Below, in pieces: positions 925-43,195 of a DNA stretch of 64,000 nt. The stretch spans positions 7,914-71,913 of the forward strand of contig LBON01000006.1 of NCBI GenBank assembly GCA_000989525.1, written 5' to 3'. The DNA comes from a candidate division TM6 bacterium GW2011_GWF2_32_72. Its GTDB lineage: Bacteria > Babelota > Babeliae > Babelales > GWF2-32-72. Below the pieces are notes generated by a model. That model did not search any database. It was not told the origin of the DNA and worked only from the letters and a program-made list of their open reading frames with translations. Position 1 is the stretch's first letter. Every line of letters starts with the position of its first letter. Both the position numbers and the translations under genes were made by a program.

Positions 925-2382
925 CTATGAACTTGCAATTGAATAAGTTATTGAGCCATCCATATTTGTTGATCCAACCAAAACGGAAGAACCGATGCGT
1001 TTGAAATAAGATTTATTACCAAAATAAACAATACCATCTCCAAGATCTAAGCTTGTTGCTAAAATTAAACTAGCATTAGAATAGATCTTTAAATGATTAC
1101 CCGATGTAGGCAAATCCCAAGAACTAACATTAATATTTTTATTAACCAAATTACCCTGAAGCAAACAAAGTTTGGCTCCTTGTTCAAACTGACAAACAAT
1201 ATCATCGACAGAGTTACCAAAGAAGATGCCTTGACTGGCATCAAAATAATCAGTTGCTTCTGAACTTAAATAAGAAGTTCTTTGAATAGTTAAAGTACCT
1301 TTAGTTAATTCCAAATTGGTTACTGTATGAATTGTTGCACCATTTAAAATTAATTCAGAAGTTACATCTGTAAATTCTAATAATTGGCTAGAAGAACTTA
1401 TTGGATCGTAACTAAAAGTTAAGCCTTTATCTAAAATTAATTCACTATTTTTAAAAATGGTACTTGTTGCAACAGATTGATACGCAAAAGTATGAATGCC
1501 CTTGATTTTGACGCTATCTTTTATTTTTAATGCGCCAGAAGTAAAAGAATAATCTGAATCCAAAACCAAAGTTGAATTTTGCAATGTAATTGTAGACCCT
1601 GAATAACACTGAATATTATTTCCACCAACACTTTTTATAATTACATCTCGAATTAAAAGTGATGAATCAGAACCAACTGTTATTTGTCCAGAAGTTCCTA
1701 AATCAAGAACATTTCCATCACCACGAATTGTATTATTACCTGTTAAAGTCATAATAGAAGAAAGTTCTGTAGTTCCACCCAATTTTATTCCAGCAGAACT
1801 TGCAATAGTAATAGAACTAGTCAAATTTAAGTCTCCACCAAATTCAATCATTCTATTATTTGCATTAATAGCGCCAGAACCCGTAAAAGCTTTATCACCA
1901 GTAAACTTTAAATCGTCATTCAAGTTCACGGTACCATTATTAACAACAATATTTTGTGAAATTCTAGATTGCACAGCAACCGTGACAGATGATTCTTCCC
2001 CGCCCAACGTTATATCCCCTGTAAAAACAGGTTGACCTGACAAAGAATTTCCAGTCCCAGAAACTGTTAAATCTGTTATAGTTTCACCCGACGCAGCAAT
2101 AATTGTTCCGCCACCTTCAATTGCTGAAGATGCTGAATTTGGATCATAATTTGAAATTCCACCAAGCGGAACAAGAGCTCCGCCATTTGTAAAAGTTATG
2201 TTTGAACCAGTAACGGTTGAACTGACATCTTTATAAATTGAACCACCAAAATCTGTAATTGGATTATTAACTTGAAATGTAGCGCCAGAATGAAGAATCA
2301 GGCCTACGTTTTTACTTGTAAATTTATAAGTGGCCTGAATTTGAATAAAGAAAAATGCGAATAAAACAAATTTTTTTATCAT
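925..2382 (-). CDS. Secreted parallel-beta-helix-like protein, family paralog 2 (Gly-rich passenger-like N-half, no propeller, C-terminal extension)
   Basis: ORF 485 aa with signal peptide MIKKFVLFAFFFIQIQA. The C-half carries family motifs GDGNVLDLGTSGQITV, FAYQSVATSTIF, FSYDPISSSSQLLEFTDVTSELILNGATIH and LTKGTLTI. Its stop is 8 nt from the start of paralog 1. Confidence 0.85.
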   Translation of the reverse strand: MIKKFVLFAFFFIQIQATYKFTSKNVGLILHSGATFQVNNPITDFGGSIYKDVSSTVTGSNITFTNGGALVPLGGISNYDPNSASSAIEGGGTIIAASGETITDLTVSGTGNSLSGQPVFTGDITLGGEESSVTVAVQSRISQNIVVNNGTVNLNDDLKFTGDKAFTGSGAINANNRMIEFGGDLNLTSSITIASSAGIKLGGTTELSSIMTLTGNNTIRGDGNVLDLGTSGQITVGSDSSLLIRDVIIKSVGGNNIQCYSGSTITLQNSTLVLDSDYSFTSGALKIKDSVKIKGIHTFAYQSVATSTIFKNSELILDKGLTFSYDPISSSSQLLEFTDVTSELILNGATIHTVTNLELTKGTLTIQRTSYLSSEATDYFDASQGIFFGNSVDDIVCQFEQGAKLCLLQGNLVNKNINVSSWDLPTSGNHLKIYSNASLILATSLDLGDGIVYFGNKSYFKRIGSSVLVGSTNMDGSITYSIASS

Positions 2383-2513
2383 ACTACTCTCAATTTGTTT
2401 CCTTCTTCGCTCTTTGAGCTTCGCAGGACAGATTGTTTAAATTTGCATACGACGCTATCAATAAATACCCCAATAAGTCAACATCCAAGTAATCAAAATT
2501 TTATAAATAAATA

Positions 2514-2542
2514 TTGACGAACCAATCAATGCGTGATTTTAT
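2514..2542 (+). promoter_or_regulatory. Candidate sigma70-type promoter for the SET-domain gene
   Basis: TTGACG (2514-2519), 17-nt spacer, TTTTAT (2537-2542), about 30 nt upstream of ATG 2572, with AAGGA as a Shine-Dalgarno. AT-rich hexamers are common here, so support is weak. Confidence 0.3.
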
Positions 2543-2571
2543 GACAAATTAATCAAAAAAGGATTTTTTTA

Positions 2572-3267
2572 ATGAATAATTTACTAAAAAAACTAATAAT
2601 CATTGTTGCGCTAATTCTTTGCGTTATATTAATCAAAAAAAATATTTGGAAAAAAAATCCCGCAATCCATGACCCAAAACAAATTGAAAAAATATTTCTC
2701 CAAATAATATATTCATCTGATACAAAAATTTCTGCCGAAACAAAAAAAATCCTCGATGCCTGTGGTGTACAAAAAAATCTTAAAATGAATGGAATAATAG
2801 ATGAAAATTCACATGAATACCCTCACCTTCTACAACAGGTAATGTCGCACAAAACAGCCAAATGTTACATAAAAAAAATAAGCGATCAAGTAGGATACGG
2901 GTGCTTTGCTGCAGAAACAATCAAAGCCTATGAACTAGTCAGTGAATATACAGGATTGATAAAAACATCCGTGACTGATACACAATACAACTGGGAAATT
3001 CCATTGATGTTTTTTTACAATAACATGCCTTATTCTCTTTATATGGATGGAAAAAATTACGGTAACTTTATGCGTTTTGTTAATGCTTCAAAAAATCCAA
3101 ACATAGATGTCAGATATATTTTTGATAAATCTGGGTATCCCCATGTTCTTTACATTGCAAATAAAAACATAATTAAAGGGGAACAGCTTCTTGTAAGTTA
3201 TGGCAAAAAATATTGGGAACAAAAAGATCGCAAGTTTGTTGAATTAAACAGGTTTGATGTTTATTAA
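2572..3267 (+). CDS. SET-domain protein (lysine methyltransferase-like) with N-terminal membrane anchor/signal
   Basis: ORF 231 aa with N-terminal hydrophobic LLKKLIIIVALILCVILI. SET core: GYGCFAAETIKAYELVSEYTGLI ... MDGKNYGNFMRFVNASKNPN ... YIANKNIIKGEQLLVSYGKKYW. This fits the GxG..EYxG / RFxNHSCxPN / GEELxxDY pattern, with NHS replaced by NAS. Confidence 0.8.
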   Translation: MNNLLKKLIIIVALILCVILIKKNIWKKNPAIHDPKQIEKIFLQIIYSSDTKISAETKKILDACGVQKNLKMNGIIDENSHEYPHLLQQVMSHKTAKCYIKKISDQVGYGCFAAETIKAYELVSEYTGLIKTSVTDTQYNWEIPLMFFYNNMPYSLYMDGKNYGNFMRFVNASKNPNIDVRYIFDKSGYPHVLYIANKNIIKGEQLLVSYGKKYWEQKDRKFVELNRFDVY

Positions 3268-3276
3268 TTTTTATAA

Positions 3277-3483
3277 GGACTCGATCCTTCGACTGAAGGT
3301 AATAGCTCTTCATGAACAGGCTGATGACATCCGTCTTTATTTTTATTTCTAACTCAATATTAAAAATTTAAAAATCTAATTTAACAACAGTTTCATATTT
3401 AAAGCCTACAGAGGCTAGAACAACTCAATAAAATATAAATTAATATGACGGATGTCATCCTGAGCTAGTCGAAGGATCGAGTC
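3277..3483. mobile_element. MITE-like inverted-repeat element, copy 1 (short form, no outer ends)
   Basis: Left arm ggactcgatccttcgac...gatgacatccgtc (3277-3325). Right arm gacggatgtcatcctgagctagtcgaaggatcgagtc (3447-3483). The conserved interior ends aaaatataaattaatat. Flanked by ttataa on both sides. Confidence 0.85.
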
Positions 3484-3529
3484 ATTATAAAAAACAATTG
3501 TTTTTTGCAAGCAAATACGCCTTTACTTT

Positions 3530-3907
3530 ATGCATTTAACAATTAAAATATTATCTTTTAGATCACATATATTCAAAGGCCATGCTGTGAAACAGTTTTT
3601 TGTTTACATTCTTAAATGTCGTTGTGGAAAATTTTACACAGGATTTACATGCAATTTAGAAAGGCGGTTGAGTGAACATAACCAAGGCCTTTGTGAATAT
3701 ACAAAAGAAAGACTCCCTATTACTCTTGTCTTTCATCAAACCTTTCCCTCAATGCATGAAGCTTTTTGCGCTGAACAAAAAATTAAAGGATGGAGCCGAG
3801 ATAAAAAGAAAGCTTTAATAGATAAAAACTTTGATCTCTTATGTATTCTTTCTAAACCTGTCAAAGCTAAAAACAACTTTTTAATAAAGACTCGATCCTT
3901 CGACTAG
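3530..3907 (+). CDS. Small GIY-YIG (URI-domain, COG2827/UPF0213-like) nuclease
   Basis: ORF 125 aa. FFVYILKCRCGKFYTGFTCNLERRLSEHNQG ... AEQKIKGWSRDKK matches the GIY / YxG / R / E / W-R-KK pattern. An in-frame GTG at 3587 would give the usual short N-terminus. The last 6 codons plus TAG (3889-3907) come from the arm of repeat copy 2. Confidence 0.8.
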   Translation: MHLTIKILSFRSHIFKGHAVKQFFVYILKCRCGKFYTGFTCNLERRLSEHNQGLCEYTKERLPITLVFHQTFPSMHEAFCAEQKIKGWSRDKKKALIDKNFDLLCILSKPVKAKNNFLIKTRSFD

Positions 3908-4124
3908 CTCAGGATGACATCCGTCTTTATTTATAACTATTTTTTTGATTATTCTTTCACATCTAAAACGACTATTTAAAATATTTATCGCTATTTATAA
4001 AAATAGCCTCGATCTTAAAACTAACGAAGGATCAAATCAGTTCAAAATTATAAATAAAGACGGATGTCATCCTGAGCCAGTCGAAGGATCGAGTCCTCTT
4101 TTAAATAATTTTTGTATAAACTCT
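3889..4124. mobile_element. MITE-like inverted-repeat element, copy 2 (divergent interior, outer right end present)
   Basis: Left arm gactcgatccttcgactagctcaggatgacatccgtc (3889-3925). Right arm gacggatgtcatcctgagccagtcgaaggatcgagtcc (4059-4096), then the outer end aataatttttgtataaactct. Track ORF 3945-4142 is only a read-through of these arms. Confidence 0.8.
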
Positions 4125-4164
4125 AAAGTTATAAATTTTTGATGTGATCTCTTTTTTTTTCGAT

Positions 4165-4258
4165 TGATGTATAAAAAACAAAGTAAGTTTTGATAAGAAA
4201 TGTATAAAAATCAAAGCAAGTTTTGATCATTTATGTATAAAAATCAAAGTAAGTTTTG
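4165..4258. repeat. Three-unit 33-nt-period tandem repeat
   Basis: Units atgtataaaaa(a/t)caaag(t/c)aagttttg start at 4167, 4200 and 4233. Each has a small atcaaa/tttgat hairpin. The repeat lies just 3' of the stop (4270) of the minus-strand paralog and beside the right end of MITE copy 2. Confidence 0.8.
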
Positions 4259-4269
4259 GTAGAACCAAA

Positions 4270-6318
4270 TTAAACATTGTCGCTCAAAATAAAACCGTCA
4301 CAAATAAAATTAGACCTAAATTCAAAATTTAAATTGTTTTCTGCTATACCATTACCAAAAGAAATGCCTTCTGTAGGTAGCAAGCCTTCTGCGTAAATTG
4401 AAGGTAAATTTTTTAACCTTAATGTGCCATTTGTCAAACGCAATCCCGTTGTTGTTGAATACAAAGTTGCATTATTTAAAGTTAAAATAGATGAAGAATC
4501 AGCCATTACAAATAAATCTCTATTAGCCGTTTGGGGATCGTAAGAAAATGTTGTGCTGCATTCGAAAATTAATTCTGAATCTGATCCCAATTTCAACCCA
4601 CCACTGTTTTGTAAAACGAATTTATGCGAACCCTGAACTTTTACGGTACCGTAGATTTCAAGATTTGCGATTGGCCAAACAAGATCGTCAGAAAGTGCCA
4701 AAACGCAATTTTGCAAAGTCACCGTTGCAGAATTATCAACACAGTAAAATCGGTTAGACTGAACATTGTTTAAATAAATATTTTCTAGTTTAAGCCCTTT
4801 TGAGTCTGTCACCACAATTACGCCATTTATTAAATTTAAAATACTGTTGTTGCCATTTATTCCACAACCACCTTTAAAAGTTACACTTTTTTGTAGATCT
4901 AAATTATTATTTAAATTTAAATAAATATTTTCAAACTTATAAAAATCTGTGATATCCCAAGTTTTTACATATTTTCCGTCAGATTCACCACTGGCAACAA
5001 ATTTTCCATTATGAGAAAATCCAACAGTCCTTACCTTCTGATTAATTTCTTTATTACTCGTTAAATTCAATGTTGTATTTGATGAATTAAAACAAAAAAA
5101 TTTAAGTTCGCTTCCACCTGTTAATGTATCCTGCCCTAAAACAAGCCTGCTGCCATCTAAAGACCAAAAAACATCGTTAACTATTGAAGCTCCAACGTTT
5201 ACACTTACTGCGCTAGAAAGCGTTGTTCCATTAAAATAAACAACATTAAGCCTGTTAGTTCCAGCAGCCAAAGCTGTGGCTATTAAATTTCCAGAAGATC
5301 TATATGAAATTCCGCCAACTGTTCCCGCCATAACTAAAGAATTAACCTGTGTTAAAACGGTTCCATTAAAACTATAAACATAAAGGCTTAAGCCTTCGCC
5401 CATTACTAAATAATTATTTGAAGGGCTCCAGGCTAAACTATGCATCCCAGGAGTTGCACCTGCAACAGGGTCTGTATCAACTGTAGAAACAAATGATCCA
5501 CTAGAATTCATACTGTAAACAATCAAATTGTTTGTGACATGTTTTGTTGCTGCGGCTAGATAATTTCCGTCTGAAGACCAAGCAACACAGTTTGCATCTG
5601 CCCCAATATCTTTGCCTTCAACAAAAGTTAATGCTGGCCCTGCAGGGTTAAATCTCATTACAAAAACTTCTGAACTATTAATAACAGCCTGACTGTTTGA
5701 TTTAGCAGCAACGGCAATTAAATAATCATTTGGATGACAAGCAACATCATAAATATCCGAGTTTGTATCATAGTAAGCAACTAAATTAAGTACACCCGTA
5801 GAACTGACTGAAAAAACTTTAATTTCTTGATTGTCACCGCCTCTTCCAATTGTCACTAAATAATTGTCATCAAACATCCAATCAAGCCCCCAAACTTCTT
5901 GACCACTTAAATAGGAAGATTTTTGAGTTAGATAGGCAGGAAATGTTGCTGGACCATACAAAGCAGAAATAGTTGGTGCCAGGTCCAACATTTTTTGAGA
6001 ACCAAAACCAACAATAGATCCAAGAGATTTTATTTCTGTATCACCCTGCAAAATTAAATCGCGTGCTAAATTTAAAGTTCCACCATTTAATGAAATATCT
6101 CCAAAAACAGGCATAAAAGAATTAAATGTGCAAGTTGCACCACCTGTATCTAAAGAAAAACCAGAATCCATACCTAAAAAACCAGAAATAACATTTTCTG
6201 CATCCACGGGAAATGCTGGAGTTGAACTATTGCGAATTACAGCAGATGTTGAACCAACGGTTATGGGAATAAGAGTTTGAGTTGTAAATATAAGGAGGAA
6301 TAATATTAATTTTTTCAT
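4270..6318 (-). CDS. Secreted beta-helix + 7-bladed propeller family protein, paralog 3
   Basis: ORF 682 aa with signal peptide MKKLILFLLIFTTQTLIPITVGS. N module: GFSLDTGGATCTFNSFMPVFGDISLNGGTLNLARDL. Seven blades (LDWMFDDNYLV, VACHPNDYLIA, VAWSSDGNYLA, LAWSPSNNYLV, ISYRSSGNLIA, VFWSLDGSRLV, VGFSHNGKFVA). C module: FSYDPQTANRDLFVMADSSSILTLNNATLYSTTTGLRLTNGTL. Confidence 0.9.
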   Translation of the reverse strand: MKKLILFLLIFTTQTLIPITVGSTSAVIRNSSTPAFPVDAENVISGFLGMDSGFSLDTGGATCTFNSFMPVFGDISLNGGTLNLARDLILQGDTEIKSLGSIVGFGSQKMLDLAPTISALYGPATFPAYLTQKSSYLSGQEVWGLDWMFDDNYLVTIGRGGDNQEIKVFSVSSTGVLNLVAYYDTNSDIYDVACHPNDYLIAVAAKSNSQAVINSSEVFVMRFNPAGPALTFVEGKDIGADANCVAWSSDGNYLAAATKHVTNNLIVYSMNSSGSFVSTVDTDPVAGATPGMHSLAWSPSNNYLVMGEGLSLYVYSFNGTVLTQVNSLVMAGTVGGISYRSSGNLIATALAAGTNRLNVVYFNGTTLSSAVSVNVGASIVNDVFWSLDGSRLVLGQDTLTGGSELKFFCFNSSNTTLNLTSNKEINQKVRTVGFSHNGKFVASGESDGKYVKTWDITDFYKFENIYLNLNNNLDLQKSVTFKGGCGINGNNSILNLINGVIVVTDSKGLKLENIYLNNVQSNRFYCVDNSATVTLQNCVLALSDDLVWPIANLEIYGTVKVQGSHKFVLQNSGGLKLGSDSELIFECSTTFSYDPQTANRDLFVMADSSSILTLNNATLYSTTTGLRLTNGTLRLKNLPSIYAEGLLPTEGISFGNGIAENNLNFEFRSNFICDGFILSDNV

Positions 6319-7400
6319 TATAAACCTACATTGTCATTCAAAATTAAACCATAAAATTCTAAGTTTGCAGCACCAATTACTCTCAAATTTCCAGCTTCTG
6401 TGCCGTTGCCCAAAGAAATAGATTCAGTTTCTACCTCACCTTCTGCAAACAGATTTGAGTTGTTAGAAACAAGCAGCGTGCCTTTGGTCAAACGCAAGCC
6501 AGTTGTTGTTGAATGCAATGTTCCACCGTTAAGTTCCAAAATTGATGTCTTATCGGTAAAATCTAATAAATCTCTACTGTTTGAAACAGGAGCATAAGAA
6601 AAAGTTACATTTGAATCTAAAATCAAAGATGAGTACGAATTGATTGTAGATATTTGATTAGTTGAATAAATAAATTTACCACTTCCTGTTAACTTAAGAT
6701 CATTATCTACAGTAAATTTACCTACTGAAAAATCTAATGAATCAGAAAAAACCAAATCGACGTCTTGAAATTTAATAATAGATGTAGATGCTGCACATAT
6801 AATTCTATTATTCAAATTATTTAGATTTTTTATTTTTATATTTTTAAGAGTCAATGTTGAATTAGTGCCAACCGCAATAGCTCCTTCATTTTGCAAATCA
6901 ATACAGTGTCCACCGCCATCTAAAAGACTGTTGCCTGCAAATAAAATTGCACTTTGCAAAGATATGTCTGAATTCAAAAAGGTATTTATATTAGACCACT
7001 GATAAACTTGGATTCCAACAGCATTTACGTCACCCACCAAATATGTTTGAGAGGTAGATAAATCTAAAATATGCCCATTGCCAATTATATTTCCCATAAA
7101 ACTCATGGTGCCATTTTTTTCAAAAATAAAATCTGTAAGTAACGTTAGCGAACCACCTTTTAAATTTACAGTTCCACCCACTGGAAAAAAAGAACTAAAA
7201 TTACATGAAGTTGCAACATCAGCAAAAATAAAACCATTTCCCATAGATGCAAAACTAAGAATTGAGTTGGCATTAGTTGGAAAATTAATTTGGATCTCCC
7301 TGCTAACCCCAACATCTGAACCAATAGTAAGAGAACGAATTTGAGTTGGAATTATTATAAAAAAAAGTATTGTTAGTATCCTTTTTAACCAATTCATCAT
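6318..7400 (-). CDS. Secreted beta-helix family protein, paralog 4 (minimal member: N module + C module, no propeller)
   Basis: ORF 360 aa with signal peptide and TIGS motif. CNFSSFFPVGGTVNLKGGSLTLLTDF and GNGHILDL run straight into GGGHCIDLQNEGAIAV ... FSYAPVSNSRDLLDFTDKTSILELNGGTLHSTTTGLRLTKGTL. Its stop overlaps the start of paralog 3 by 1 nt. Confidence 0.9.
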   Translation of the reverse strand: MMNWLKRILTILFFIIIPTQIRSLTIGSDVGVSREIQINFPTNANSILSFASMGNGFIFADVATSCNFSSFFPVGGTVNLKGGSLTLLTDFIFEKNGTMSFMGNIIGNGHILDLSTSQTYLVGDVNAVGIQVYQWSNINTFLNSDISLQSAILFAGNSLLDGGGHCIDLQNEGAIAVGTNSTLTLKNIKIKNLNNLNNRIICAASTSIIKFQDVDLVFSDSLDFSVGKFTVDNDLKLTGSGKFIYSTNQISTINSYSSLILDSNVTFSYAPVSNSRDLLDFTDKTSILELNGGTLHSTTTGLRLTKGTLLVSNNSNLFAEGEVETESISLGNGTEAGNLRVIGAANLEFYGLILNDNVGL

Positions 7401-9475
7401 ATCTCCACATTCTGACTAGCTAGAAAACCAAAGATATTCAAATTAGCTTTACCATTTATGTTTAAATTATCTGATTCAATACCATTTCCAAAAATAATCC
7501 CATTGTTTGCCCAGGTTCCTGCAGAAATTAAATCGGATGTTTGATTAATATTTAAAGATCCTTTTGTTAACTGCAATCCATGATTAGAAACATAAAATTT
7601 TCCACCATTTAAACTTAGAACAGAAGTTCCATCTTCCATTTCTAATAATTGATTTGAATTTATCAATGGAGCAAAACTTAAAGTCACATTAGCATCTAAA
7701 AATAATTCTGAATTTGAATAAATTTTTCCAGATCCATTAAATAACCAGGTCCATTTTGAATCACCAGTAATTTTATTTTTTTGAACAATATCTATAGCAC
7801 CCTCTGAGAAAGTAGCCTCGTTTGAAACCAAAACTATTGCATTGCTCAAAATAAGCTTAGATGATTCATCTAATCCCCTTATATTAGTTCCTGCAATATT
7901 TATTAAATTGAGATTTTTTAAACACAAACAAGAATCAGCTGAAATTATTAAGCTTCCAGAGACCCCTAAATCAAGAGAATATCCCTGACCATCTATACAT
8001 GAAATCCCGTAGCAAGTTAATGGTTTTTTAAGTTCAACATTTGAATTCAATTTCAAGCACAAATCTGAAATATAAGAAGATGGCGAGGCAATACCATATT
8101 GATAAATCATAATTTTTGAACCTACATTGTTTGAAACCGCAATACCAATAAAATTATCATCGTGTGACCAACGAACACCTAAAACATCAGCTGAGACTAA
8201 AACATCATCAAGTAGTGTTAAACTTGGAATACCTGCATTAAATGAATAAAGTTTTAGTTCTAGAATACCCGTTGATTGCACAACAGCAATTTCATTTCCA
8301 TCTGAATTCCAATGAATCCCGTTTACCCTTGAAGCACCAACATCTTTTGCTAATAATTCTGTCAAAGAATTTGTTACAGGATTAAAAGAAATAATGCCAA
8401 GTCTAACAACACCAACGTCAAGACCAACAGCTATATAATCACTAGTTGGATGATAATCTAACGAATAAACTGTACTAATAAATGTTCTATAATTATCCGT
8501 ATAAACCAAATTGGTTCCATCAAATGTGCTGATGTCAACATATTGACCGTTGGCTACAAATATTCTTGTTCCATCGTTATTCCAACAAATTGTTTCTTTT
8601 TGACCTGGTATGGAATAAATATAAACAGTATCAAAATCTCCAAAAATACCGCTTAAAATTGCACTGACACCAACATTAGTTTCTGCTGTTCCATATGCAT
8701 AAGCCAAATAATTTCCATCTGGTCGCCAGGCAATACTGATCACACCAGGTAAAGTTTTGCCATCAACATAAGTTAAAGATTCTTCAGCAAAATTAAAGTT
8801 AAGAGTAAAAACTTCATTTCCAAAAGTTGAACCTTCTGATGTGTCATCTATACAAGCTGCCAAGATATAACTTGAAGGATGCCAACGAACACTATTTACT
8901 TTTGTGGGTGTAGAAAAAGATGCTATTTCTACAAGTTCTTCATTTTGAAATTCGAAAATTTTAATTAAACCATAAAAAAAAGTTGCCGAATAATCCAAGC
9001 CTACCGCTACATACTTATTGTCATAGGACCAATCTATACTACGAACATTTACAGTCTCTGTATCTTGATCAACAAAATTCAATGCTCCTGCAACACTCGG
9101 CAAATTACAATCTAAAAACGTTATAGTTGAAGCTAACTCCAAAGTATGATCATTCCCTATAACGTTACCAAGTGTCATTGTAGCTGGTTCTTTGAGTTTT
9201 AAATCTCTATTTAATGTTAAAGTCCCGGCATTCAAATTAAATACAGAGCCCGTTATTGGAAAATGAGAATCATAAGTACATGCAACGCTCGAATCTGCAA
9301 GGGAAAATCCACCATCTAACAAAGCAAAACCAGTAACAGAATTGGTTGTGCCTGAAAAGTTTTGAAGCGAGCTCACAAAAGTTACCGCTACATCAGAACC
9401 TACTGTCACACCAAACAATGGTAAACAGAAGTTGAACAATAAAAGAATAAAAGAAAAACTTTTACTCTTTATCAT
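7397..9475 (-). CDS. Secreted beta-helix + 7-bladed propeller family protein, paralog 5
   Basis: ORF 692 aa with signal peptide and TVGS motif. CTYDSHFPITGSVFNLNAGTLTLNRDL. Blades IDWSYDNKYVA, VRWHPSSYILA, IAWRPDGNYLA, ICWNNDGTRIF, LDYHPTSDYIA, IHWNSDGNEIA, VRWSHDDNFIG. C module: SFAPLINSNQLLEMEDGTSVLSLNGGKFY..LQLTKGSL. ATGA overlap with paralog 4. Confidence 0.9.
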   Translation of the reverse strand: MIKSKSFSFILLLFNFCLPLFGVTVGSDVAVTFVSSLQNFSGTTNSVTGFALLDGGFSLADSSVACTYDSHFPITGSVFNLNAGTLTLNRDLKLKEPATMTLGNVIGNDHTLELASTITFLDCNLPSVAGALNFVDQDTETVNVRSIDWSYDNKYVAVGLDYSATFFYGLIKIFEFQNEELVEIASFSTPTKVNSVRWHPSSYILAACIDDTSEGSTFGNEVFTLNFNFAEESLTYVDGKTLPGVISIAWRPDGNYLAYAYGTAETNVGVSAILSGIFGDFDTVYIYSIPGQKETICWNNDGTRIFVANGQYVDISTFDGTNLVYTDNYRTFISTVYSLDYHPTSDYIAVGLDVGVVRLGIISFNPVTNSLTELLAKDVGASRVNGIHWNSDGNEIAVVQSTGILELKLYSFNAGIPSLTLLDDVLVSADVLGVRWSHDDNFIGIAVSNNVGSKIMIYQYGIASPSSYISDLCLKLNSNVELKKPLTCYGISCIDGQGYSLDLGVSGSLIISADSCLCLKNLNLINIAGTNIRGLDESSKLILSNAIVLVSNEATFSEGAIDIVQKNKITGDSKWTWLFNGSGKIYSNSELFLDANVTLSFAPLINSNQLLEMEDGTSVLSLNGGKFYVSNHGLQLTKGSLNINQTSDLISAGTWANNGIIFGNGIESDNLNINGKANLNIFGFLASQNVEI

Positions 9476-11775
9476 TTGCCTTCTCCTGAAGATATAAATG
9501 AATAATTAATTGTACCAAGAGGGTGGGTGGAGCCAATAAGTTCCGCGGCATCAATAAATGTTAAATTTAAATTGTCACCCAACATAAGAACGCCCGATTG
9601 CATATTCATAGTATTTGTTAAAACTAATTCAGTATCATCATTCATATAAATAACAGAAGTAGAAACAGGCATTTTTAAAGAAGAAGGTAAAATGTTTTTG
9701 TAATTCAAAATACCAGAATCAACTGTCAAGCAAACACCTGGGTTTATTCTAAAAATTAAATCTTCTTCTGCATTTGAATTACCAAAAGAAATTCCCTGTA
9801 ATGTTGAAGATATCTCTGGATCATAAGAAGATGCAAAAATAGAGTCTTCTTTAAACAGCAATGTGCCCTTTGTAAGTTCTAAAGGTACAGCAGCATATAA
9901 AGATGCCCCCATAAACTTTAATCTTGCTGAAGAATCTTCCAACTGAAATAGATTGCCTGCTTTGGATAAAGGATCGTAAGAAAACGTAAATCCAGCATCT
10001 AATTCTATTTTTGTTTCATGCAAAACAGTACTTGTTTGGTTTGATTGATAAATAAAACTATAATCTCCAGTAAAGAAAACATAATTCTTAAACCAAATAG
10101 CACCTGTATCAAAATTAAAATCTTGAATTTGATTCCAATTTACATCTTTAAGAGTCAAAACTCCTGTATCTAAACATGTAATATTTGAATCTGAAATATT
10201 TTTTACAACAATATTATCTAAAGTTAATTTAGAATTAGACCAAACAATCAAACTGCCCGTTTCTGTAAGATCTAAAATGTGTCCATTGCCAAAAAAGCTA
10301 CAATCTCCAACAAATACAATTGGATTTCGAAGTTGTAAATTTTCACTAAGCCTCATATGCACATTGCTAAAAACATATTGTGGGATACTTGTGTAAATAG
10401 CGATAGCAGGACTTACTTCTTCTTTAGTACTTAAAGAATTTCCTGCTACTAAATAATCATTAGAATTAGACCAACGCACAGAACCCACATCTGCTGATAT
10501 TTTTCTTTGCGCGACTAAACTAAGCGTTGGATTATCAGCATCAAAATTAAATAATGAAAGTTCCAAATAATTTTTATTAAACTGTTGCCCAATTACTAAA
10601 CTGCAACAAATTGGATTCCATGCAACAGCATTAACTGCTGATGTTCCAACATCATAAACACAGGCTTGAGTTAAACTATTTGCAACCGAATCAAACTCAT
10701 AAATTCTTAATTTATTATTTCCCGAACTCAAACCGACTGCAATATATGTACCAGAAGGAGCCCAATCAAGTGAACCTCCATCGGCACCAATATTTATTCC
10801 TGCTGTACTTGTTATAGCTGCTCCATCAAAATAAAAAATCATAAGGTCTGTAGCCGAACCCGAATCTTCTGCCATGCAAACTGCCAAATAATCGCCCGAA
10901 AAATCCCAACAAACACCTTTATTAGCAACAGCTCTGCTCCCACTAATATCGTATGTAACTCCTGTTCCAAAAACACCTGCTGTCATGGGATAAATAATTA
11001 ACTCACTATCTGAAGTTTGTTTTACACAAGCCAAATAAGTTCCTGCTTTATTCCAAGCAACTCCACGCACAGTATCTGTAAAATTTTTAGAATCTATTTG
11101 TGTAAATGAATTATCCAATGAATCAAATTCATACGTAAAAATTTCATCACCAGAACCGGCTTCTGTAGAAATAGCCAAAATATATTCTGCAGGACTCCAT
11201 CTAACACTTGTAACAACTTTACTCAAAGCAAAAGATGCTACTTCATTTAAAGAACCATTCAAAAATGAATATACCTTAACACCATTTGAAGAATTGAATC
11301 CAACAGCCACATATTTGTCATTGTGAGAAAAATCCAAAGTTAAAACGTCTGCCAAGGTTTCTTTAGATGAAATCAAGTTCAATCGATTATTTACAACCAT
11401 ATCACCCTGCAAGCATGTAATAGAAGTTGTTAAATCAATAAGATAACCATTTCCAGAAATGCTCCCCATAGACTGGAAAGAACAAATATTTGCCAAATTA
11501 AAATCACGTGAAAGCATGAAATGTCCACCATTGAAATTAATACTTCCAGAAGGCGGAAAAAAACTATCATATGTACAATAACAATCTGAATCTTCTAATG
11601 AAAAACCAGCTTCAACAACAGTAAAACCACCTATTGTATTTTGTTGATATTTAGAAAAATTAATTGGTGATGTTGCTCGGAAAACATTGACGTTTGAACC
11701 AAGTTTTATGGCATTTATTTGAGAAAAAACAAACACACAAAAAAGAAATAAATATTTTTTATTGAAAATCTTCAT
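9472..11775 (-). CDS. Secreted beta-helix + 7-bladed propeller family protein, paralog 6 (with C-terminal extension)
   Basis: Track ORF of 768 aa starts at TTG 11778. ATG at 11775 with GGAG 7 nt upstream is more likely. KLGS motif, CTYDSFFPPSGSINFNGGHFMLSRDF, seven blades (e.g. VAWNKAGTYLA, LDWAPSGTYIA), then FSYDPLSKAGNLFQLEDSSARLKFMGASLY..LELTKGTL and a roughly 90-aa tail shared with paralogs 2 and 7. Confidence 0.9.
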   Translation of the reverse strand: MKIFNKKYLFLFCVFVFSQINAIKLGSNVNVFRATSPINFSKYQQNTIGGFTVVEAGFSLEDSDCYCTYDSFFPPSGSINFNGGHFMLSRDFNLANICSFQSMGSISGNGYLIDLTTSITCLQGDMVVNNRLNLISSKETLADVLTLDFSHNDKYVAVGFNSSNGVKVYSFLNGSLNEVASFALSKVVTSVRWSPAEYILAISTEAGSGDEIFTYEFDSLDNSFTQIDSKNFTDTVRGVAWNKAGTYLACVKQTSDSELIIYPMTAGVFGTGVTYDISGSRAVANKGVCWDFSGDYLAVCMAEDSGSATDLMIFYFDGAAITSTAGINIGADGGSLDWAPSGTYIAVGLSSGNNKLRIYEFDSVANSLTQACVYDVGTSAVNAVAWNPICCSLVIGQQFNKNYLELSLFNFDADNPTLSLVAQRKISADVGSVRWSNSNDYLVAGNSLSTKEEVSPAIAIYTSIPQYVFSNVHMRLSENLQLRNPIVFVGDCSFFGNGHILDLTETGSLIVWSNSKLTLDNIVVKNISDSNITCLDTGVLTLKDVNWNQIQDFNFDTGAIWFKNYVFFTGDYSFIYQSNQTSTVLHETKIELDAGFTFSYDPLSKAGNLFQLEDSSARLKFMGASLYAAVPLELTKGTLLFKEDSIFASSYDPEISSTLQGISFGNSNAEEDLIFRINPGVCLTVDSGILNYKNILPSSLKMPVSTSVIYMNDDTELVLTNTMNMQSGVLMLGDNLNLTFIDAAELIGSTHPLGTINYSFISSGEGK

Positions 11776-11778
11776 CAA

Positions 11779-14700
11779 CTAACTCCAAGTATCGGTATAA
11801 ATCAATGCCCCATGAGCTATAGAATCACCAGTCAAAAATGCATCATCTCCTGTTGCAAAAGTGACATTGTCCTCAAATTCCAGTGTTCCATTTCCAAGAT
11901 TCAAAGATTCATGTAAAGAAAATCTAGTATTGGACATAAAATACAACTTGCAAGAAGAAGCAGTCATACCCCAAGAAGCAGGCAATAAATTTTTATAGGC
12001 CAAATTACCTGAAGATATTATTAATCCTGCACCAGGAACAATTTCGCAATTTAAATCATTAATTGAAGTCAAGCCATCTCCAAAAACAAAACCCTGATCA
12101 GAAATATTTAATTCTGGATCTGTGTCTGCAACTAGTATTGAATCTTTACGAACCAACAATGTTCCTTTTGTTAAATCCATAACAGTTGTTGTATAAATAG
12201 TTGCTCCATTTAAAAGCAATGTTGACGTCCAATCTTTAAATTCCAAAAGATTTGTTTGTCTTGATGATGGATCATAACTAAATGTGAAATCTGAATCCAA
12301 CCTTAATCTTGATTTAGTTAAAATAGTACTAGTTTGAGCTGACTCATAAACAAAAATATGGTCCCCACGCATATTTACATCTGTCTTAAATTCAAAAGAA
12401 CCATTTTCAAAAATATAATCACCACTTTGTACCCAAACAACATTTTGTAAAATAATTTTACTATCTGCAGCACATTCAATATTGGCATTTGCTATATTTT
12501 CTATAATTAAATTCTTAATTGTAAGTACTGAATTCGGAGCAACAACAATTTTACCAACATCACATAAAGCAAGTGTATTCATTTCTCCATGAATAATACA
12601 GTGACCGCTAAAGGTCCAAGTCGAACATAAATTAACTTGTGCATCAAACTCTAATACCCCATTATTTCCAATCCAAGCAATTGTACTTGTCCAAGTCAAA
12701 TCTTGTGGTCCAAGAATCAAACTATACGAGGCAAGATCAACATTTCCGCCAACATCAAACTTAGCGTTAGCTGCGCACTGTAAATTATGTGCTAATTTAA
12801 CAGTCCCTCCATTTAAAGAAACATCATTATGCATCAAACCATCAGTTGCCAAAACCATATCGTACAAAGGTCCTCCCAAAATAATTTTTCCTGAAAAACC
12901 ACCCGATCCATAAAATCCTGTATTTGCGCCGTTAACAACAAGATACAATGGCATTGTACCCTTTGTCATAAACACATAATCATCATCAAACATCGTATAA
13001 ACATATGCTTGATACTGCTTTGCCTTAATATCAAAAAGTGTTTGAGGCCAAGAAACTATTGCAGAGCTATAATCCAAAACAACCCCACTTCTTACAGATA
13101 AATCTGGCACTAAATGTGATTCTAAATTCAAGCCCATATTGGGAAAAGTTATATCTTGATTTATGTGAATATAAGAATTGTTTTTACGTTTTAACATACA
13201 TGAAGCAGATTGTGACTGAATACAATTTGGCAAATAGTTGTTGTAAGTAAACCAACCACTGTTATGAATAATTGTTGCTCCCGGATTAAACTTAAAGTAG
13301 GCATCATACCCTTCTTGACCATTGCCAAGAACTAAGCCTGTCTCTGATGTTGAACCTTCCATATCCATAGTCACCACATTATTAAAAAACAAATCCCCTT
13401 TGAGTAAATTCATACCAGAAGTTGTAATAATAAAACCACAATCGTCAAATGTTAATTTTGATGAAATATTTTCAAACTCAAGTGGTTCAACACCATTTTT
13501 TCTACCTATTTTAATTGTTGCTTTATCAGCAATTTTTAGTTCTGATTGACAAGCAATAGTGCTAGTCATATAGCTTTCATATAAAAATGAATACGAGCCT
13601 TTTAAATCAACATTTCGAACAAAATAAAAAGAACCTGTATCAAATGTATAATCACCAAATAAAATACCTGAAACATTTTCTAAAATTATTTTTGAACCAT
13701 TTCCCAAACATTTTAAATTGTTTTCTTTTAAACCACATAAACAAAGATTTTTAAACTTAAGGGTTACTCCATCTTCCACAACAATTTGCCCGGTATCGGC
13801 AAAATGCAGAACACCTCCGTCACCAAAAATTGTTGTATCACCAGAAAACGTCCATGTTGAAGCTAATGACATTTTTGAATTAAAATTAATAGATCCATTA
13901 TTAGAAAGCCAATCAATTGTGCTAGTCCAAGTTAAATCACTAGGCCCAAAGATAAATTGATGCGTACCAATATCTACCCTACCTGAGCCTGTTAAAATAA
14001 TATCTTTATCTAATTTTAGATCTCTTGTTAAAATTATTTTGCCATTGTTCATTAAAATATTAGATCTAAGTAAATCGTTAAAACCACAAGAAAGCTCTGC
14101 GTTAGAATCAGCCAAAGTTAAATAACCGGCAAAACCGCCTAAACCTTGAATAATATTTCCATCATTTTGAACAACTAATACTAATGGCAAGGATCCAGAA
14201 GTAAGCTCAATCAAATGATCGCCACCTAAAATATAATACCATTGCCCTTGTTGACGACTTGTGAGTTCAAAACCAGCGTTTGGCAAACGAACTTTAACTC
14301 CATCATAAGTTAGATATTTTCCTGCAGCCACAGAAATGGGTGAAACCAATAAAGATGTAAACTCTAAAACCATTTGTGGAAATACAATATCTGTATCAAC
14401 GCGAATTTTAGAATTTAGCCCTCGAATTAATCTAGCCGTGTCTGAAGTTGCTTTTAACTTATCTGCTTCATAATTATTATAAACAACCCAGCCTCTGTTT
14501 AATAAAACTGAGGCTCCTGAATCAAATCTAAAAACAGAATCTTCTGCTTCTATACCCGTGCCAATTCTCAAACCATTTAATGATGAAGTCGATTCCATTT
14601 CAACAACAACACTTCTTTCAAGCTCGATTGTTCCTTTTGAAAAAGTAATACCTGAACCAGTTATAAGTAAATTACAATTGTCCAACTTAAAACATGAAGT

Positions 14701-15528
14701 ATTATCTTCAAAAACAAGGGGTTGAATATCAGAATTTTCATCATGTCTGCCAACAGCAATTCTACAATCGTCCGTTACGCACAATCTAGAATGATTATGA
14801 ATACTACTACTTTGCGAACTAGAATAAATAAATGTATGTGACCCAACCAACTCAACATCATTTAAAAACTGGATAGACCCAAAAGAAAAAGTGTAATCTT
14901 CAGAAAGAACTATTTTGACATTATCTAAAATAATATTTGACGAATCATCTACACAATACAAACTGCTGCAACAAAAATTTGATAAAGTTACATCTTTAAG
15001 CCTCAATGATGAGCCTGAATCAACAACTATTTTTCCAGTTGAATCAAAGTCTATGCTAAAACCATTTGCCGCTAACTCTGAAGAACCTTTGACTGTAATT
15101 GTAGATTTTAATTCAACATCTGAACGTAATGTAGCTTTTAAATCTTCCAAGATAACATCAACACTATTAATTGAAGAAACAGATGGGGCAAGATCTGCAA
15201 GATGATTATAACCATAGATATGACCCAATGTGACTAAATTAACAACATCATGCAAAATTATATTTTCAACTAAATAAAGATTTCCACCATTTAAATTTAA
15301 ATCACCGGAAACTGGATAAACCGAAGAAAATGTACACGAGGTAGCATTATCTTCCAATGCAAAGCCTTCTTTGAACCAAGCAAAACCACAAGCTTCATTA
15401 TCAGAATCACTAGCTGGAAATATATAACACGTTTCTGTTGAAACAGAATCATAAGAACCTATAACCACGGCTAATAAATTATTTATAAAAAAAACTGATA
15501 AAAACAAGATTATTTTTTTCATCATCAT
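11779..15528 (-). CDS. Secreted beta-helix family protein, paralog 7 (three tandem internal modules, no propeller)
   Basis: The longest ORF is 1258 aa from 15555. The ATG triplet at 15528/15525/15522, preceded by AAGAGAG, gives the signal peptide MKKIILFLSVFFINNLLAVVIGS. Three modules each carry LNGGxxxL, GxGxxLxFxxxGxIVV, FxYxSxxxSxI and GWxxYNNY. Only the last keeps FSYDPSSRQTNLLEFKDWTSTLLLNGATIY..LTKGTL. Confidence 0.9.
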   Translation of the reverse strand: MMMKKIILFLSVFFINNLLAVVIGSYDSVSTETCYIFPASDSDNEACGFAWFKEGFALEDNATSCTFSSVYPVSGDLNLNGGNLYLVENIILHDVVNLVTLGHIYGYNHLADLAPSVSSINSVDVILEDLKATLRSDVELKSTITVKGSSELAANGFSIDFDSTGKIVVDSGSSLRLKDVTLSNFCCSSLYCVDDSSNIILDNVKIVLSEDYTFSFGSIQFLNDVELVGSHTFIYSSSQSSSIHNHSRLCVTDDCRIAVGRHDENSDIQPLVFEDNTSCFKLDNCNLLITGSGITFSKGTIELERSVVVEMESTSSLNGLRIGTGIEAEDSVFRFDSGASVLLNRGWVVYNNYEADKLKATSDTARLIRGLNSKIRVDTDIVFPQMVLEFTSLLVSPISVAAGKYLTYDGVKVRLPNAGFELTSRQQGQWYYILGGDHLIELTSGSLPLVLVVQNDGNIIQGLGGFAGYLTLADSNAELSCGFNDLLRSNILMNNGKIILTRDLKLDKDIILTGSGRVDIGTHQFIFGPSDLTWTSTIDWLSNNGSINFNSKMSLASTWTFSGDTTIFGDGGVLHFADTGQIVVEDGVTLKFKNLCLCGLKENNLKCLGNGSKIILENVSGILFGDYTFDTGSFYFVRNVDLKGSYSFLYESYMTSTIACQSELKIADKATIKIGRKNGVEPLEFENISSKLTFDDCGFIITTSGMNLLKGDLFFNNVVTMDMEGSTSETGLVLGNGQEGYDAYFKFNPGATIIHNSGWFTYNNYLPNCIQSQSASCMLKRKNNSYIHINQDITFPNMGLNLESHLVPDLSVRSGVVLDYSSAIVSWPQTLFDIKAKQYQAYVYTMFDDDYVFMTKGTMPLYLVVNGANTGFYGSGGFSGKIILGGPLYDMVLATDGLMHNDVSLNGGTVKLAHNLQCAANAKFDVGGNVDLASYSLILGPQDLTWTSTIAWIGNNGVLEFDAQVNLCSTWTFSGHCIIHGEMNTLALCDVGKIVVAPNSVLTIKNLIIENIANANIECAADSKIILQNVVWVQSGDYIFENGSFEFKTDVNMRGDHIFVYESAQTSTILTKSRLRLDSDFTFSYDPSSRQTNLLEFKDWTSTLLLNGATIYTTTVMDLTKGTLLVRKDSILVADTDPELNISDQGFVFGDGLTSINDLNCEIVPGAGLIISSGNLAYKNLLPASWGMTASSCKLYFMSNTRFSLHESLNLGNGTLEFEDNVTFATGDDAFLTGDSIAHGALIYTDTWS

Positions 15529-15653
15529 TACTCTCTTTTTAGGCGAATTATTCAAAAGTTAACAACTATCAAGTTGATTAACCGTAGTCAAGACAATAGC
15601 CCCACATGTTTATAACAAGTGAGGCTAAAATCTAGAAAGGATGTGGATGAAAT

Positions 15654-20131: not shown

Positions 20132-20512
20132 GAACTTATACGAAAATTTAAAAACACTGATTTTTTTACATCAGAAAAAGACTCGTCCTTCGATACAAAT
20201 CCTTACTGCGTTCGGATTCACTCAGGATGAGATCCTTCGACTAGCTCAAGATGACATCCGTCATATTAATTTATATTTTGTTTCATTGTTTTAGTGCTGT
20301 AGCCTAAACAATATGATTATTATTAAATAACGTTCTCCACGGGTTTTAAGCCATGGTATCCTAAACATTCCTAATGAAATTCACTAATTATTTTAAAAAA
20401 AAAGACGGATGTCATTCTAAGCTAGTCGAAGGATCTCATCCTGAGTGAATCCGAACGCAGTAAGGATTTGTATCGAAGGACGAGTCCTTTTAATAATTTT
20501 CGTACAAACTCT
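20131..20512. mobile_element. MITE-like inverted-repeat element, copy 3 (full length, long composite arms on both sides)
   Basis: The outer end agaacttatacgaaaatttaaaaacactgattttttt starts on the stop codon of the hydrolase gene. Arms: gactcgtccttcgatacaaatccttactgcgttcggattcactcaggatgagatccttcgactagctcaagatgacatccgtc (20180-20262) and its complement (20404-20487). The right end is ttttcgtacaaactct. Confidence 0.9.
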
Positions 20513-30223: not shown

Positions 30224-30614
30224 GAACTTATACGAAAATTATTTAAAGGACTCGATCCTTCGACGAACTCAGGATGACATCCGTTTTAATTTTTATTCCT
30301 AATTCAATACTACGATAACATCCATCTTTATTTTTATTCGTGTGACCAGAAAACCTCAAGTCTTTTAAGCCGGGTAATGAATGGTCTCCCTTATTTCTAA
30401 TTCAATACTAAATTTTTAAAAATTTAATTTAATAATAATCACATAGTTTAAGGCTACCGAACTAGAACAACGCGATAAAATATAAATTAATATGACGGAT
30501 GTCATCCTGAGCTCGTCGAAGGATCTCATCCTGAGTGAATCCGAACGCAGTAAGGATTTGTATCGAAGGATCAAGTCCTTTTTTGATGTAAAAAATTAGT
30601 GTTTTTAAATTTTC
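30224..30614. mobile_element. MITE-like inverted-repeat element, copy 4 (full length; short left arm, long composite right arm)
   Basis: Left: agaacttatacgaaaattatttaaaggactcgatccttcgacgaactcaggatgacatccgt. Right: gacggatgtcatcctgagctcgtcgaaggatctcatcctgagtgaatccgaacgcagtaaggatttgtatcgaaggatcaagtcc (30494-30578), then ...attttcgtataaacac. It has the conserved interior plus an extra internal module. Confidence 0.9.
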
Positions 30615-34357: not shown

Positions 34358-34655
34358 AGCTTATACAAAAATTATTTAAAGGACTCAATCCTTCGACCAG
34401 CTCAGGATGAAATCCGTCATATTAATTTATATTTTATTGCGTTGTTCTAGCCCTGTAGCCTTAAACTATGTGATTATTATTAAATTAAATTTTTAACATT
34501 TTAGTATTGAATTAGAAATAAGAAAGACCATTCATCTACTGGCTTAAAAGAAAAAATAAAGACGAATGTCATTTTAGTATTAAATTAGAAGTAAAAATAA
34601 AGACGGATGTCATCCTGGGCTTGTCGAATGATCAAGTCCGTTTTTATAATAATTC
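34358..34655. mobile_element. MITE-like inverted-repeat element, copy 5
   Basis: Left: agcttatacaaaaattatttaaaggactcaatccttcgaccagctcaggatgaaatccgtc, then interior catattaatttatattttattgcgttgttctag... There is an internal half-arm gacgaatgtcat (34561). Right arm: gacggatgtcatcctgggcttgtcgaatgatcaagtcc (34602-34639). Confidence 0.88.
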
Positions 34656-34798: not shown

Positions 34799-35494
34799 GT
34801 GAAAAAACTTATTTTTTCTTCTATATTTTTTATATTTTTTTCCACAGAAACTGATTCCAGACTATTAAACTTTTTATCATACGAGCCCAAAACAGAAACT
34901 ATAGATAATAGTGTTCATAGTCATACTACTCACCATACAACTCAAAACAATTACAACATGGGATTCGGTTTTGAAAATAAAATAAATGCCTTTGCTCAGG
35001 GTGCATCTCAAGCCGCAAAAGCAAAATTACCTCTGATAAAAGATTTTTTAATTAATAATAAATACAAAATTACAATTGGAACTGTGGTTGTTATTTACTC
35101 CTACCTTCTATGGCAAATTACAAGTTTAAACAAAAAAATTGCCACCGGCACAACTTGGTCTTCCTGGAAAAACAACTTAACAATGAAAGAACTTTATCAA
35201 ACCTGTCACAAAAAATTAGCCGAAGAATTAATTCGAGATATTAAACTTAAATATATGGATGCAAAAAATTTTGAAAATCTTTCGGCTTCAATATTCGCTT
35301 TTTCTTCAGACATAAACAAAGAAATAAAAACACTCAAACGATACAATTTCATTGTTACATGGATAAAACGTTTTTTAATTGGTTTTGCTTTTCCAATTCA
35401 ACATATTTTATGCCTGGAAGCAGATCAAAAAATAGCCCGTCTTGAATTCATGAAGAGTTTACTATCTGAATGGATGATCGATCGGAAATCTTAA
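34799..35494 (+). CDS. Membrane-associated protein, unknown function
   Basis: ORF 231 aa with a GTG start. Signal-like MKKLIFSSIFFIFFS, a His/Thr-rich stretch HSHTTHHTTQ, and one internal TM ITIGTVVVIYSYLLWQI. Confidence 0.65.
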   Translation: MKKLIFSSIFFIFFSTETDSRLLNFLSYEPKTETIDNSVHSHTTHHTTQNNYNMGFGFENKINAFAQGASQAAKAKLPLIKDFLINNKYKITIGTVVVIYSYLLWQITSLNKKIATGTTWSSWKNNLTMKELYQTCHKKLAEELIRDIKLKYMDAKNFENLSASIFAFSSDINKEIKTLKRYNFIVTWIKRFLIGFAFPIQHILCLEADQKIARLEFMKSLLSEWMIDRKS

Positions 35495-42938: not shown

Positions 42939-43195
42939 AGAGCTTATACGAAAATTATTTAAAGGACTCGATCCTTCGACTAGCTCAGAATGACATCCGT
43001 CCTTATTTCATTTCTAACTCAATATTAAAAAATTAAAAATTTAATTTAACAACGAGCCCACAGTTTAAGCCTGCAAAGGTTAAATCCTCTCAATAAAATA
43101 TAAATTAATATGACGGATGTCATCCTAAGCTAGTCGAAGGATCGAGTCATTTTTGGTATTAAAAATAAATGTTTTTGAATTTTCATATAAGCTTA
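42939..43195. mobile_element. MITE-like inverted-repeat element, copy 7 (full length)
   Basis: Left: agagcttatacgaaaattatttaaaggactcgatccttcgactagctcagaatgacatccgtc. Right: gacggatgtcatcctaagctagtcgaaggatcgagtc (43112-43148), then ...gaattttcatataagctt. The track extension of the crcB ORF back to 43153 reads through this end. Confidence 0.9.

Follow-up and report, generated by a model that had tools for sequence, protein, structure and literature searches.

A predicted GIY-YIG nuclease gene bracketed by inverted hairpins, probably an Ssn-like module, in a paralog array of a candidate division TM6 bacterium

In a 64-kb stretch of DNA (the window) from the candidate division TM6 (Dependentiae) bacterium GW2011_GWF2_32_72, an array of minus-strand paralogs is interrupted by a gap (positions 2383-4269) that holds the gene for a small predicted nuclease of the GIY-YIG type. 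The gene lies between two inverted hairpins of a class that also accompanies homologous genes in many other phyla. We interpret the gene and its hairpins as a module of the Ssn-SRM kind, known from Neisseria, and the gap itself as space between operons that also contains a lineage-typical SET-domain gene, so that two separate things sit side by side; we give this interpretation a probability of roughly 0.8. An earlier note on the same DNA had proposed a secondary insertion of mobile DNA with the SET gene as possible cargo. The colonization of the gap by a repeat-nuclease module stands, but the SET gene as cargo and the paired bounding elements do not. What our data support is that repeat-associated DNA has colonized the gap, by way of a module that looks either selfish or domesticated; the gap is not a cargo-carrying transposon.

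Results

The nuclease gene and its hairpin bracket

The nuclease gene (Table 1) encodes 125 amino acids from the ATG at 3530, or 105 from the GTG at 3590, which we consider an alternative start because homologs align from about residue 21. Domain PF01541 covers residues 23-93 and no other domain was matched. The invariant residues of a 40-sequence alignment (A1), Y6, Y16, R26 and E62, are all kept in the window protein. Its closest relatives in the PDB are the UPF0213 proteins 1zg2 and 1ywl, and UPF0213 proteins have been grouped with the bacterial Slx1-like minimal GIY-YIG domains (PMC1564403). The gene is the single one of its type in the window.

In the hairpin on either side of the gene, a variable stem of 4 bp, with GTC ahead of it, carries a conserved loop of 13 nt, TGAGCYTGTCGAA. 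The upstream hairpin has the position and orientation seen at homologous loci, and at the other end the repeat takes in the final ~15 codons of the gene together with its stop codon. The gene is thereby surrounded by a 48-nt inverted repeat of 96% identity (I2), composed of the right arm of one dispersed repeat copy (from 3447-3494) and the left arm of another. An open reading frame (ORF) at 3945-4142 is a read-through of the hairpin repeat.

Hairpins beside homologous genes in many phyla

Eighty homologous loci were gathered by protein homology alone; they span Nitrospinota, Ignavibacteria, Bacteroidota, Chloroflexota, Cloacimonadota, Alpha- and Gammaproteobacteria, Desulfobacterota, Campylobacterota and Babeliales. 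Their surroundings were scanned for a strict form of the hairpin, stem-TGAG[CT]NNNNCGAA-stem. It was present within 200 nt upstream at 37 of the 80 loci, downstream at 38 and on both sides at 32. Hairpins numbered 3.07 per kb near the gene and 0.095 per kb at greater distance, and were thus 32-fold enriched beside it. As in the window, the upstream copy usually lies on the plus strand and the downstream copy on the minus strand. A Babeliales locus (L108) is bracketed by an extended-loop form of the hairpin (~4880-4918 and ~5299-5352) that also occurs in the window.

The stem covaries. Among 195 unique instances, positions 1-3 are paired in 93% and position 4 in 67%, and the paired fraction over the four positions is 0.865, compared with 0.559±0.014 when the partners are shuffled; sliding the 3' partner gave pairing of 0.22-0.70 per position. 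No fewer than 31 distinct, fully paired stems go with the one common loop.

An exact scan of viral contigs for TCATCCTGAGCNNNNCGAAGGATC returned 102 stretches (L005-L106) with unrelated flanks, often on high-GC contigs, where a rough calculation that assumes a collection of ~45 Gb predicts less than one chance match. The 24-nt hairpin core frequently occurs in close inverted pairs there. As these stretches (about 1 Mb) contained no GIY-YIG ORF, the link between gene and repeat was tested starting from the gene.

Comparison with the Ssn system

SsnA of Neisseria meningitidis is a 94-amino-acid single-domain GIY-YIG protein (CDD cd10448) that binds a hairpin repeat called NTS (CGTCATTCCCGCGMAVGCGGGAATCYRG) only as single-stranded DNA (ssDNA) and on one strand only, and cleaves immediately upstream of this hairpin (Chenal et al., 2025, Nat Commun 16:2388, PMC11893778). 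NTS lies on both sides of the ssnA gene (NTS-ssnA-NTS), a genome carries hundreds of copies of it, related SRM motifs flank ssnA homologs across phyla, and SRM-rich genomes are enriched in symbionts; the published Ssn enzymes do not bind RNA (PMC11893778). The same authors note a resemblance to repetitive extragenic palindromic (REP) sequences and RAYT enzymes, and raise mobility or domestication as a hypothesis only (PMC11893778).

The window presents the same combination. Its protein is a small single-domain GIY-YIG protein with the catalytic tyrosines and the metal-binding residue, of a family size of about 95-105 amino acids; the gene is flanked on both sides by inverted hairpins; and the same hairpin recurs within the 64 kb in many, mostly intergenic copies. 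A host lineage of the symbiont type, and a 5' GTCAT head and 3' ATC tail common to the window hairpin and NTS, add to the likeness. A scan of viral contigs with an NTS-like pattern connects the two systems further: it led to a locus (L281) with NTS at 7786 (+), a GIY-YIG ORF at 7823-8134 and NTS at 8141 (-), and the product of this ORF matches a hidden Markov model of the homologs of the window protein (E=1.2e-16) and is 35% identical to the window protein itself over 78 residues (E=2e-13). The window system differs from the published ones in packaging its hairpins in doublets, around a spacer and inside outer terminal repeats, in its host phylum, Dependentiae, and in being known from sequence alone.

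Several observations speak against the assignment. The 4-bp variable stem and 13-nt loop of the window hairpin are unlike NTS, in which a conserved GC stem of 8 bp carries a short loop. The published SRM pattern, HGTCWYN(0-2)YYVSBRHN(0-5)WNVSBRGN(0-2)RNCYNB, matches NTS itself but nothing in the window, and nothing up to 200 nt from any of the 80 homologs. UPF0213, the source of the best solved structures for the window protein, may be a sister family of cd10448 in CDD. The upstream hairpin lies 111 nt from the conserved core of the gene, compared with the usual ~25-50 nt. Nearest-neighbour folding of single arms does not yield the 4-bp stem as the minimum-energy structure, and the support for the stem is therefore its covariation only. 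Finally, the role of the Neisseria system in transformation control may not carry over, because the TM6 lineage is thought to be intracellular.

Hairpin doublets throughout the window

The earlier note had described two copies of a miniature inverted-repeat transposable element (MITE) in the gap. They are two hairpin doublets, each of which gives one arm to the bracket around the nuclease gene. Two repeat copies are indeed present, but they are neither specific to the gap nor a matched pair. By BLAST and motif scans the window contains at least 11 inverted doublets, all intergenic, as are all 19 canonical hairpins in the 64 kb (0 expected); the terminal motifs of the two gap copies have 20 and 18 matches in the window and 0 in shuffled sequence. 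Complete doublets always have a minus-sense left arm and a plus-sense right arm, separated by a spacer whose sequence varies. Doublets measure about 145-330 bp and their inner arms 37-70 nt, the complete ones end in outer terminal repeats, AGAGCTTATACGAAAAT ... ATTTTCGTATAAGCTCT, and next to the arms come T-rich tracts. In copy 1, too, the left arm reads on the minus strand; an insertion splits its loop. Copies 1 and 2 have the arms alone in common; their spacers are unrelated and they belong to different subfamilies, the best match of copy 1 being the doublet at 42965-43148 (87% over 163 nt by BLAST, 0.90 in the doublet comparison).

Since the doublets are spread across the window, beside housekeeping genes, they do not mark the gap block as a discrete element. 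Nor is the flanking of a gene by doublets special to the gap, because the fluoride-channel gene crcB (43153-43620) also has one on each side (42965-43148 and 43639-43884). At 60581-60845 and 62832-63090, doublets in opposite orientation flank an ORF (60942-62705) for 587 amino acids with no Pfam match; judging by their sequences, this pair looks like a recent duplication that brackets a gene.

In their terminal inverted repeats, small size and lack of coding capacity the doublets are like MITEs. They share with the Correia/NEMIS elements that they are short, AT-rich, non-coding and intergenic, with terminal inverted repeats and often at the 3' ends of genes. They differ in that no consistent target-site duplication is found at their outer ends, where the flanks are AT-rich, and no cognate transposase-encoding insertion sequence in the window, the GIY-YIG nuclease gene being the sole associated gene; their conserved core, moreover, is a hairpin common to other phyla.

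An extended-loop variant of the hairpin, TCATCCTGAG-TGAATCCGAACGCAGTAAGGATTTGTA-TCGAAGGA, in which a nested small hairpin replaces the CYTG loop centre, is found at ~20181-20240, 20425-20484, 30521-30577 and 43832-43884, directly beside standard hairpins. At gathering thresholds, Rfam recognized tRNAs alone in the window. Permissive thresholds gave weak matches of the repeats to plant microRNA precursors, which we discarded as generic long hairpins, and a hammerhead-like reading of the CUGAG...CGAA loop was dropped as well, since the core does not fit on inspection and no Rfam ribozyme matched.

The paralog array and the layout of the gap

Six homologous minus-strand genes lie in the window (925-2382, 4270-6318, 6318-7400, 7397-9475, 9472-11778 and 11779-15555). 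Pairwise identities of 29-38% identify them as genuine homologs. To the right of 4270 they overlap or abut, with junctions at 6318, 7397-7400, 9472-9475 and 11778/11779. To the left of the window, on contig L001, at least four further complete paralogs and one partial paralog follow, with gaps of up to 44 nt. The close spacing reported earlier, 8 nt or less outside the gap, thus holds inside the window but not to its left. The layout of the gap was described correctly, all its listed elements being found at or near the positions given for them: on the plus strand follow the SET gene, a repeat, the GIY-YIG gene, a second repeat and a 33-nt tandem repeat.

Table 1. Coordinates in the window of the gap features, the bordering paralogs and the dispersed doublets
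Feature	Position	Strand	Evidence and remarks
Left-edge paralog, 485 aa	925-2382	-	ORF; 31-36% identical to other paralogs; first gene of the downstream part of the array
Divergent intergenic region between paralog and SET gene, 189 nt	2383-2571		Presumed promoters for both; no repeat arm
SET-domain gene, 231 aa	2572-3267	+	PF00856, E=2.2e-17; putative secreted lysine methyltransferase
Hairpin doublet copy 1	3276-3483		Left arm 3278-3345, right arm 3447-3483; inverted arms
SRM-type hairpin upstream of nuclease gene	3455-3478	+	Exact motif match; TCATCC-TGAGCTAGTCGAA-GGATC
ssn-like single-domain GIY-YIG nuclease gene	3530-3907	+	PF01541, E=2.9e-13; predicted nuclease
SRM-type hairpin downstream of nuclease gene, inverted	3894-3917	-	Exact motif match; overlaps stop codon of the gene
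Hairpin doublet copy 2, inverted orientation	3889-4124		Arms 3889-3925 and 4059-4095; outer terminal repeat ~4096-4124
33-nt tandem repeat, 2.8-3 units	4163-4261 (TRF: 4167-4258)		88% matches; unique to the site
Right-edge paralog, 682 aa, WD40 beta-propeller	4270-6318	-	ORF, domain match, homology; last gene of the upstream part of the array
Doublet with extended-loop hairpins at both ends	20181-20484		BLAST/motif scans
Doublet between uvrB and epimerase gene	30249-30577		BLAST/motif scans
Doublet downstream of hisS	34382-34638		BLAST/motif scans
Doublet between ORF 34799-35494 and pfkB-family kinase gene	35554-35735		BLAST/motif scans
Doublet between tRNA cluster and crcB	42965-43148		BLAST/motif scans
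Doublet downstream of crcB	43639-43884		BLAST/motif scans
Short, more diverged doublet adjoining HIT-family gene	48784-48928		BLAST/motif scans
Doublet, inverted orientation, 97% like 62832-63090	60581-60845		Doublet comparison
Doublet, partner of 60581-60845	62832-63090		Doublet comparison

In the nearest available relatives (L002, L003 and L004) the corresponding arrays are tightly packed; their proteins are ~27-35% identical to the window paralogs and not orthologous to them. Two small opposite-strand ORFs in the array of L004, considered as an analogous island, look like spurious calls. The best match of the flanking paralog in the protein collection outside the source genome is 37% identical, no close relative, and within the source genome it has a paralog (P0123) that is 67% identical. 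Neither an exact 30-mer from the end of paralog 3 nor a protein-based scan retrieved a relative of the flanking paralog from the metagenome contigs. The gap contains no paralog remnant. It is plausible that the ssn module colonized the gap secondarily; for insertion into a formerly continuous operon we would offer somewhat less than even odds.

Promoter-like sites are not enriched in the gap region (8 found, 12±4 in shuffled sequence). One weak minus-strand site at 2461-2432 is not above chance, and a terminator scan of the region called none.

Members of the paralog family begin with a signal-like segment, frequently contain a WD40 beta-propeller and are conserved in their C-terminal region. 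The source genome has a large number of them, one relative there being annotated as an autotransporter adhesin; relatives elsewhere are distant (at most 37% identity).

The SET gene

The SET domain is complete (PF00856 positions 1-105 of 105) and preceded by a hydrophobic N-terminus, so that the product is a probable secreted or membrane-anchored lysine methyltransferase, as far as its sequence tells. The best relatives with solved structures in the PDB are the eukaryotic catalytic domains of EHMT2, MLL and EZH2. A word-indexed protein search returned only the protein itself; an exhaustive search retrieved 427 relatives at E<=1e-10, mostly of 200-260 amino acids, with identities of at most 45% among the best 150 of them. 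Within the ten best matches, the sole organism-named one is a SET protein of Candidatus Babeliales (38% identity).

Nothing ties this gene to mobile DNA. Its stop codon lies 10 nt outside repeat copy 1, no repeat is found to its left, and both doublets are to its right. With a GC content of 0.300 and a third-position GC content (GC3) of 0.254, compared with 0.323±0.029 and 0.225±0.033 for the genes of the window, and with a codon-usage deviation typical for window genes of similar length, it appears native, which counts against the foreign island that the earlier note had envisaged. Because of its place outside both doublets, the lack of a repeat on the left, the native composition and the Babeliales relative, we do not see the gene as cargo. 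It is probably native and lineage-typical by these sequence measures, and is better read as a gene that has a divergent control region in common with the array's left half.

Bacterial SET proteins include the effectors LegAS4/RomA of Legionella and NUE of Chlamydia, and the window protein is like them in having a SET catalytic domain in a bacterium of presumed host-associated lineage; its hydrophobic N-terminal segment suggests export. It differs from LegAS4 in having no ankyrin repeats. Its match to the LegAS4/AnkI equivalog model NF043024 is weak (E=2.3e-11), covers the SET region alone and, at 43.1 bits, falls far short of the cut-off of 550. Located beside a large array of secreted WD40 proteins, the SET protein is by its sequence a reasonable candidate for a host-targeting effector.

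Discussion

Three other explanations have to be weighed against a nuclease-hairpin module in inter-operon space. The whole 1.9-kb block could be a single composite mobile element, bounded by MITEs and carrying the SET gene as cargo, that landed in a continuous operon. The block is on the opposite strand and forms the sole large gap in an otherwise tight array, the distantly related arrays are tightly packed, the absence of paralog remnants means that the gap is not a decayed paralog, and the doublets at 60581 and 62832 illustrate how copies from a recent duplication can come to flank a gene. However, there is no repeat to the left of the SET gene, and copies 1 and 2 share their arms alone, each having its closer relatives among the copies at other sites. 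Doublets occur throughout the window and are therefore no marker of the block, the SET gene is native in GC, GC3 and codon usage with its nearest named relative from the same order, and the arrays used for comparison, at ~27-35% identity, are not orthologous. Taken together, this makes the composite element decidedly unlikely. Still closer to negligible is the idea that the GIY-YIG gene is a free-standing homing endonuclease, similar to T4 Seg or I-TevI, that arrived by homing and has the repeats beside it by coincidence. GIY-YIG domains are known in homing endonucleases (PMC1564403), and the gene is short and stands by itself on the opposite strand, but its product is a bare catalytic domain with no DNA-binding module, its relatives are of the minimal Slx1-like/UPF0213 type, and hairpins that are 32-fold enriched beside homologs in many phyla, and that covary, are not coincidental.

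The repeats might also be REP-like terminators or mRNA-stabilizing hairpins that act at the level of RNA and are functionally unrelated to the nuclease. The 11 doublets are without exception intergenic and are mostly found at 3' ends or where genes converge, the arms are followed by T-rich tracts, and a long inverted doublet would fold in RNA, as the weak Rfam matches to long-hairpin microRNA precursors illustrate. We nevertheless regard a pure RNA-level role as very improbable. Because the gene-flanking copies are inverted, a transcript would contain one copy of the motif and one of its complement, and this speaks for recognition at the level of DNA; between phyla the loop is kept and the stem differs, unlike in generic terminators; the terminator scan of the gap region found none; and the published enzymes of the family do not bind RNA. 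The doublets may have a secondary terminator effect alongside their association with the nuclease.

Under the preferred interpretation, an Ssn-SRM module, the small nuclease would, by analogy with the Neisseria, N. elongata, N. wadsworthii and Wolbachia enzymes, bind the hairpin only in ssDNA, and only on the strand that reads GTCAT-stem-loop-stem. Its predicted ssDNA substrate in the window is the strand with GACGGATGTCATCCTGAGCTAGTCGAAGGATC / AGACGGATGTCATCCTGAGCTAGTCGAAGGATCGAGTC. Again by analogy, it would then cut a few nucleotides 5' of the hairpin, and in this way would target ssDNA that arises in replication, recombination or DNA uptake; the repeats may also owe their spread to it. For the nuclease activity, the strand specificity and the role of the protein in the TM6 bacterium, we infer from these better-known relatives.

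REPIN-RAYT systems consist of REP doublets and a single-copy IS200/IS605-like tyrosine transposase. The window is like them in having one enzyme gene flanked by the repeat and many non-autonomous inverted intergenic doublets, and, if the Ssn analogy is valid, in the recognition of an ssDNA hairpin. It is unlike them in that the enzyme is a GIY-YIG nuclease and not an HUH/Y1 transposase, and we know of no strand-transfer chemistry for a GIY-YIG nuclease. A more far-reaching scenario would have the doublets as non-autonomous elements that the GIY-YIG Ssn nuclease copies in trans, in the manner of REPINs, so bringing the ssn module into the array, and would make the hairpin with the TGAGCYTGTCGAA loop a distinct, cross-phylum recognition class missed by the SRM definition. 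We consider this combination of claims tentative and, as it stands, unlikely.

The Ssn nuclease-hairpin system, described in 2025, would by our interpretation extend to Dependentiae (TM6). In the open-access text that was searched, no account of the system was found besides that of Chenal et al. (2025), and Dependentiae are not among its named examples. A second class of hairpin, with a short covarying stem and a long conserved loop, accompanies many Ssn-like genes in many phyla. This class escapes the published pattern, and repeat surveys, as well as the catalogue of enzyme sites for ssDNA tools, are therefore probably incomplete.

The hairpin family also matters for annotation, as it would explain spurious peptides (HPEPVEGS, SFD..., AQDD...) and assembly breaks at repeats. 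Database GIY-YIG homologs from other phyla have odd N- or C-terminal tails, for example GSSTSSD, FDSAQQDD and HTELVEV. By eye, these tails and the peptide HPEPVEGS look like translated hairpin (window ORF 3945-4142; database proteins P0013, P0015, P0016, P0072, P0079 and P0090), and such tails are likely gene-calling artefacts that lengthen the annotated GIY-YIG proteins. An independent short-read assembly of the locus (L001) stops at window position 3453, inside the right arm of copy 1, as expected because the repeat is multi-copy.

Tandem repeats

Only 9-12 nt separate the 33-nt tandem repeat at the right end of the gap from the stop codon of the 4270-6318 paralog, and neither the unit nor similar sequence is found elsewhere in the window. 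Each unit holds an ATCAAA/TTTGAT palindrome followed by a T-rich run on the minus strand. An origin of the units in either the outer terminal repeat or the 3' end of the ssn gene was rejected, as the similarity is too weak (tblastn E=0.34). The repeat folds weakly (z -0.9 to -1.3) and was not called as a terminator; its units could be weak AT-rich terminators or protein-binding sites. A coding tandem repeat lies at 40490-40747 in ORF 37277-40777, with a period of 18, 36 or 54 nt and up to 13.6 copies, and encodes a repeat rich in Pro, Thr, Lys and Glu.

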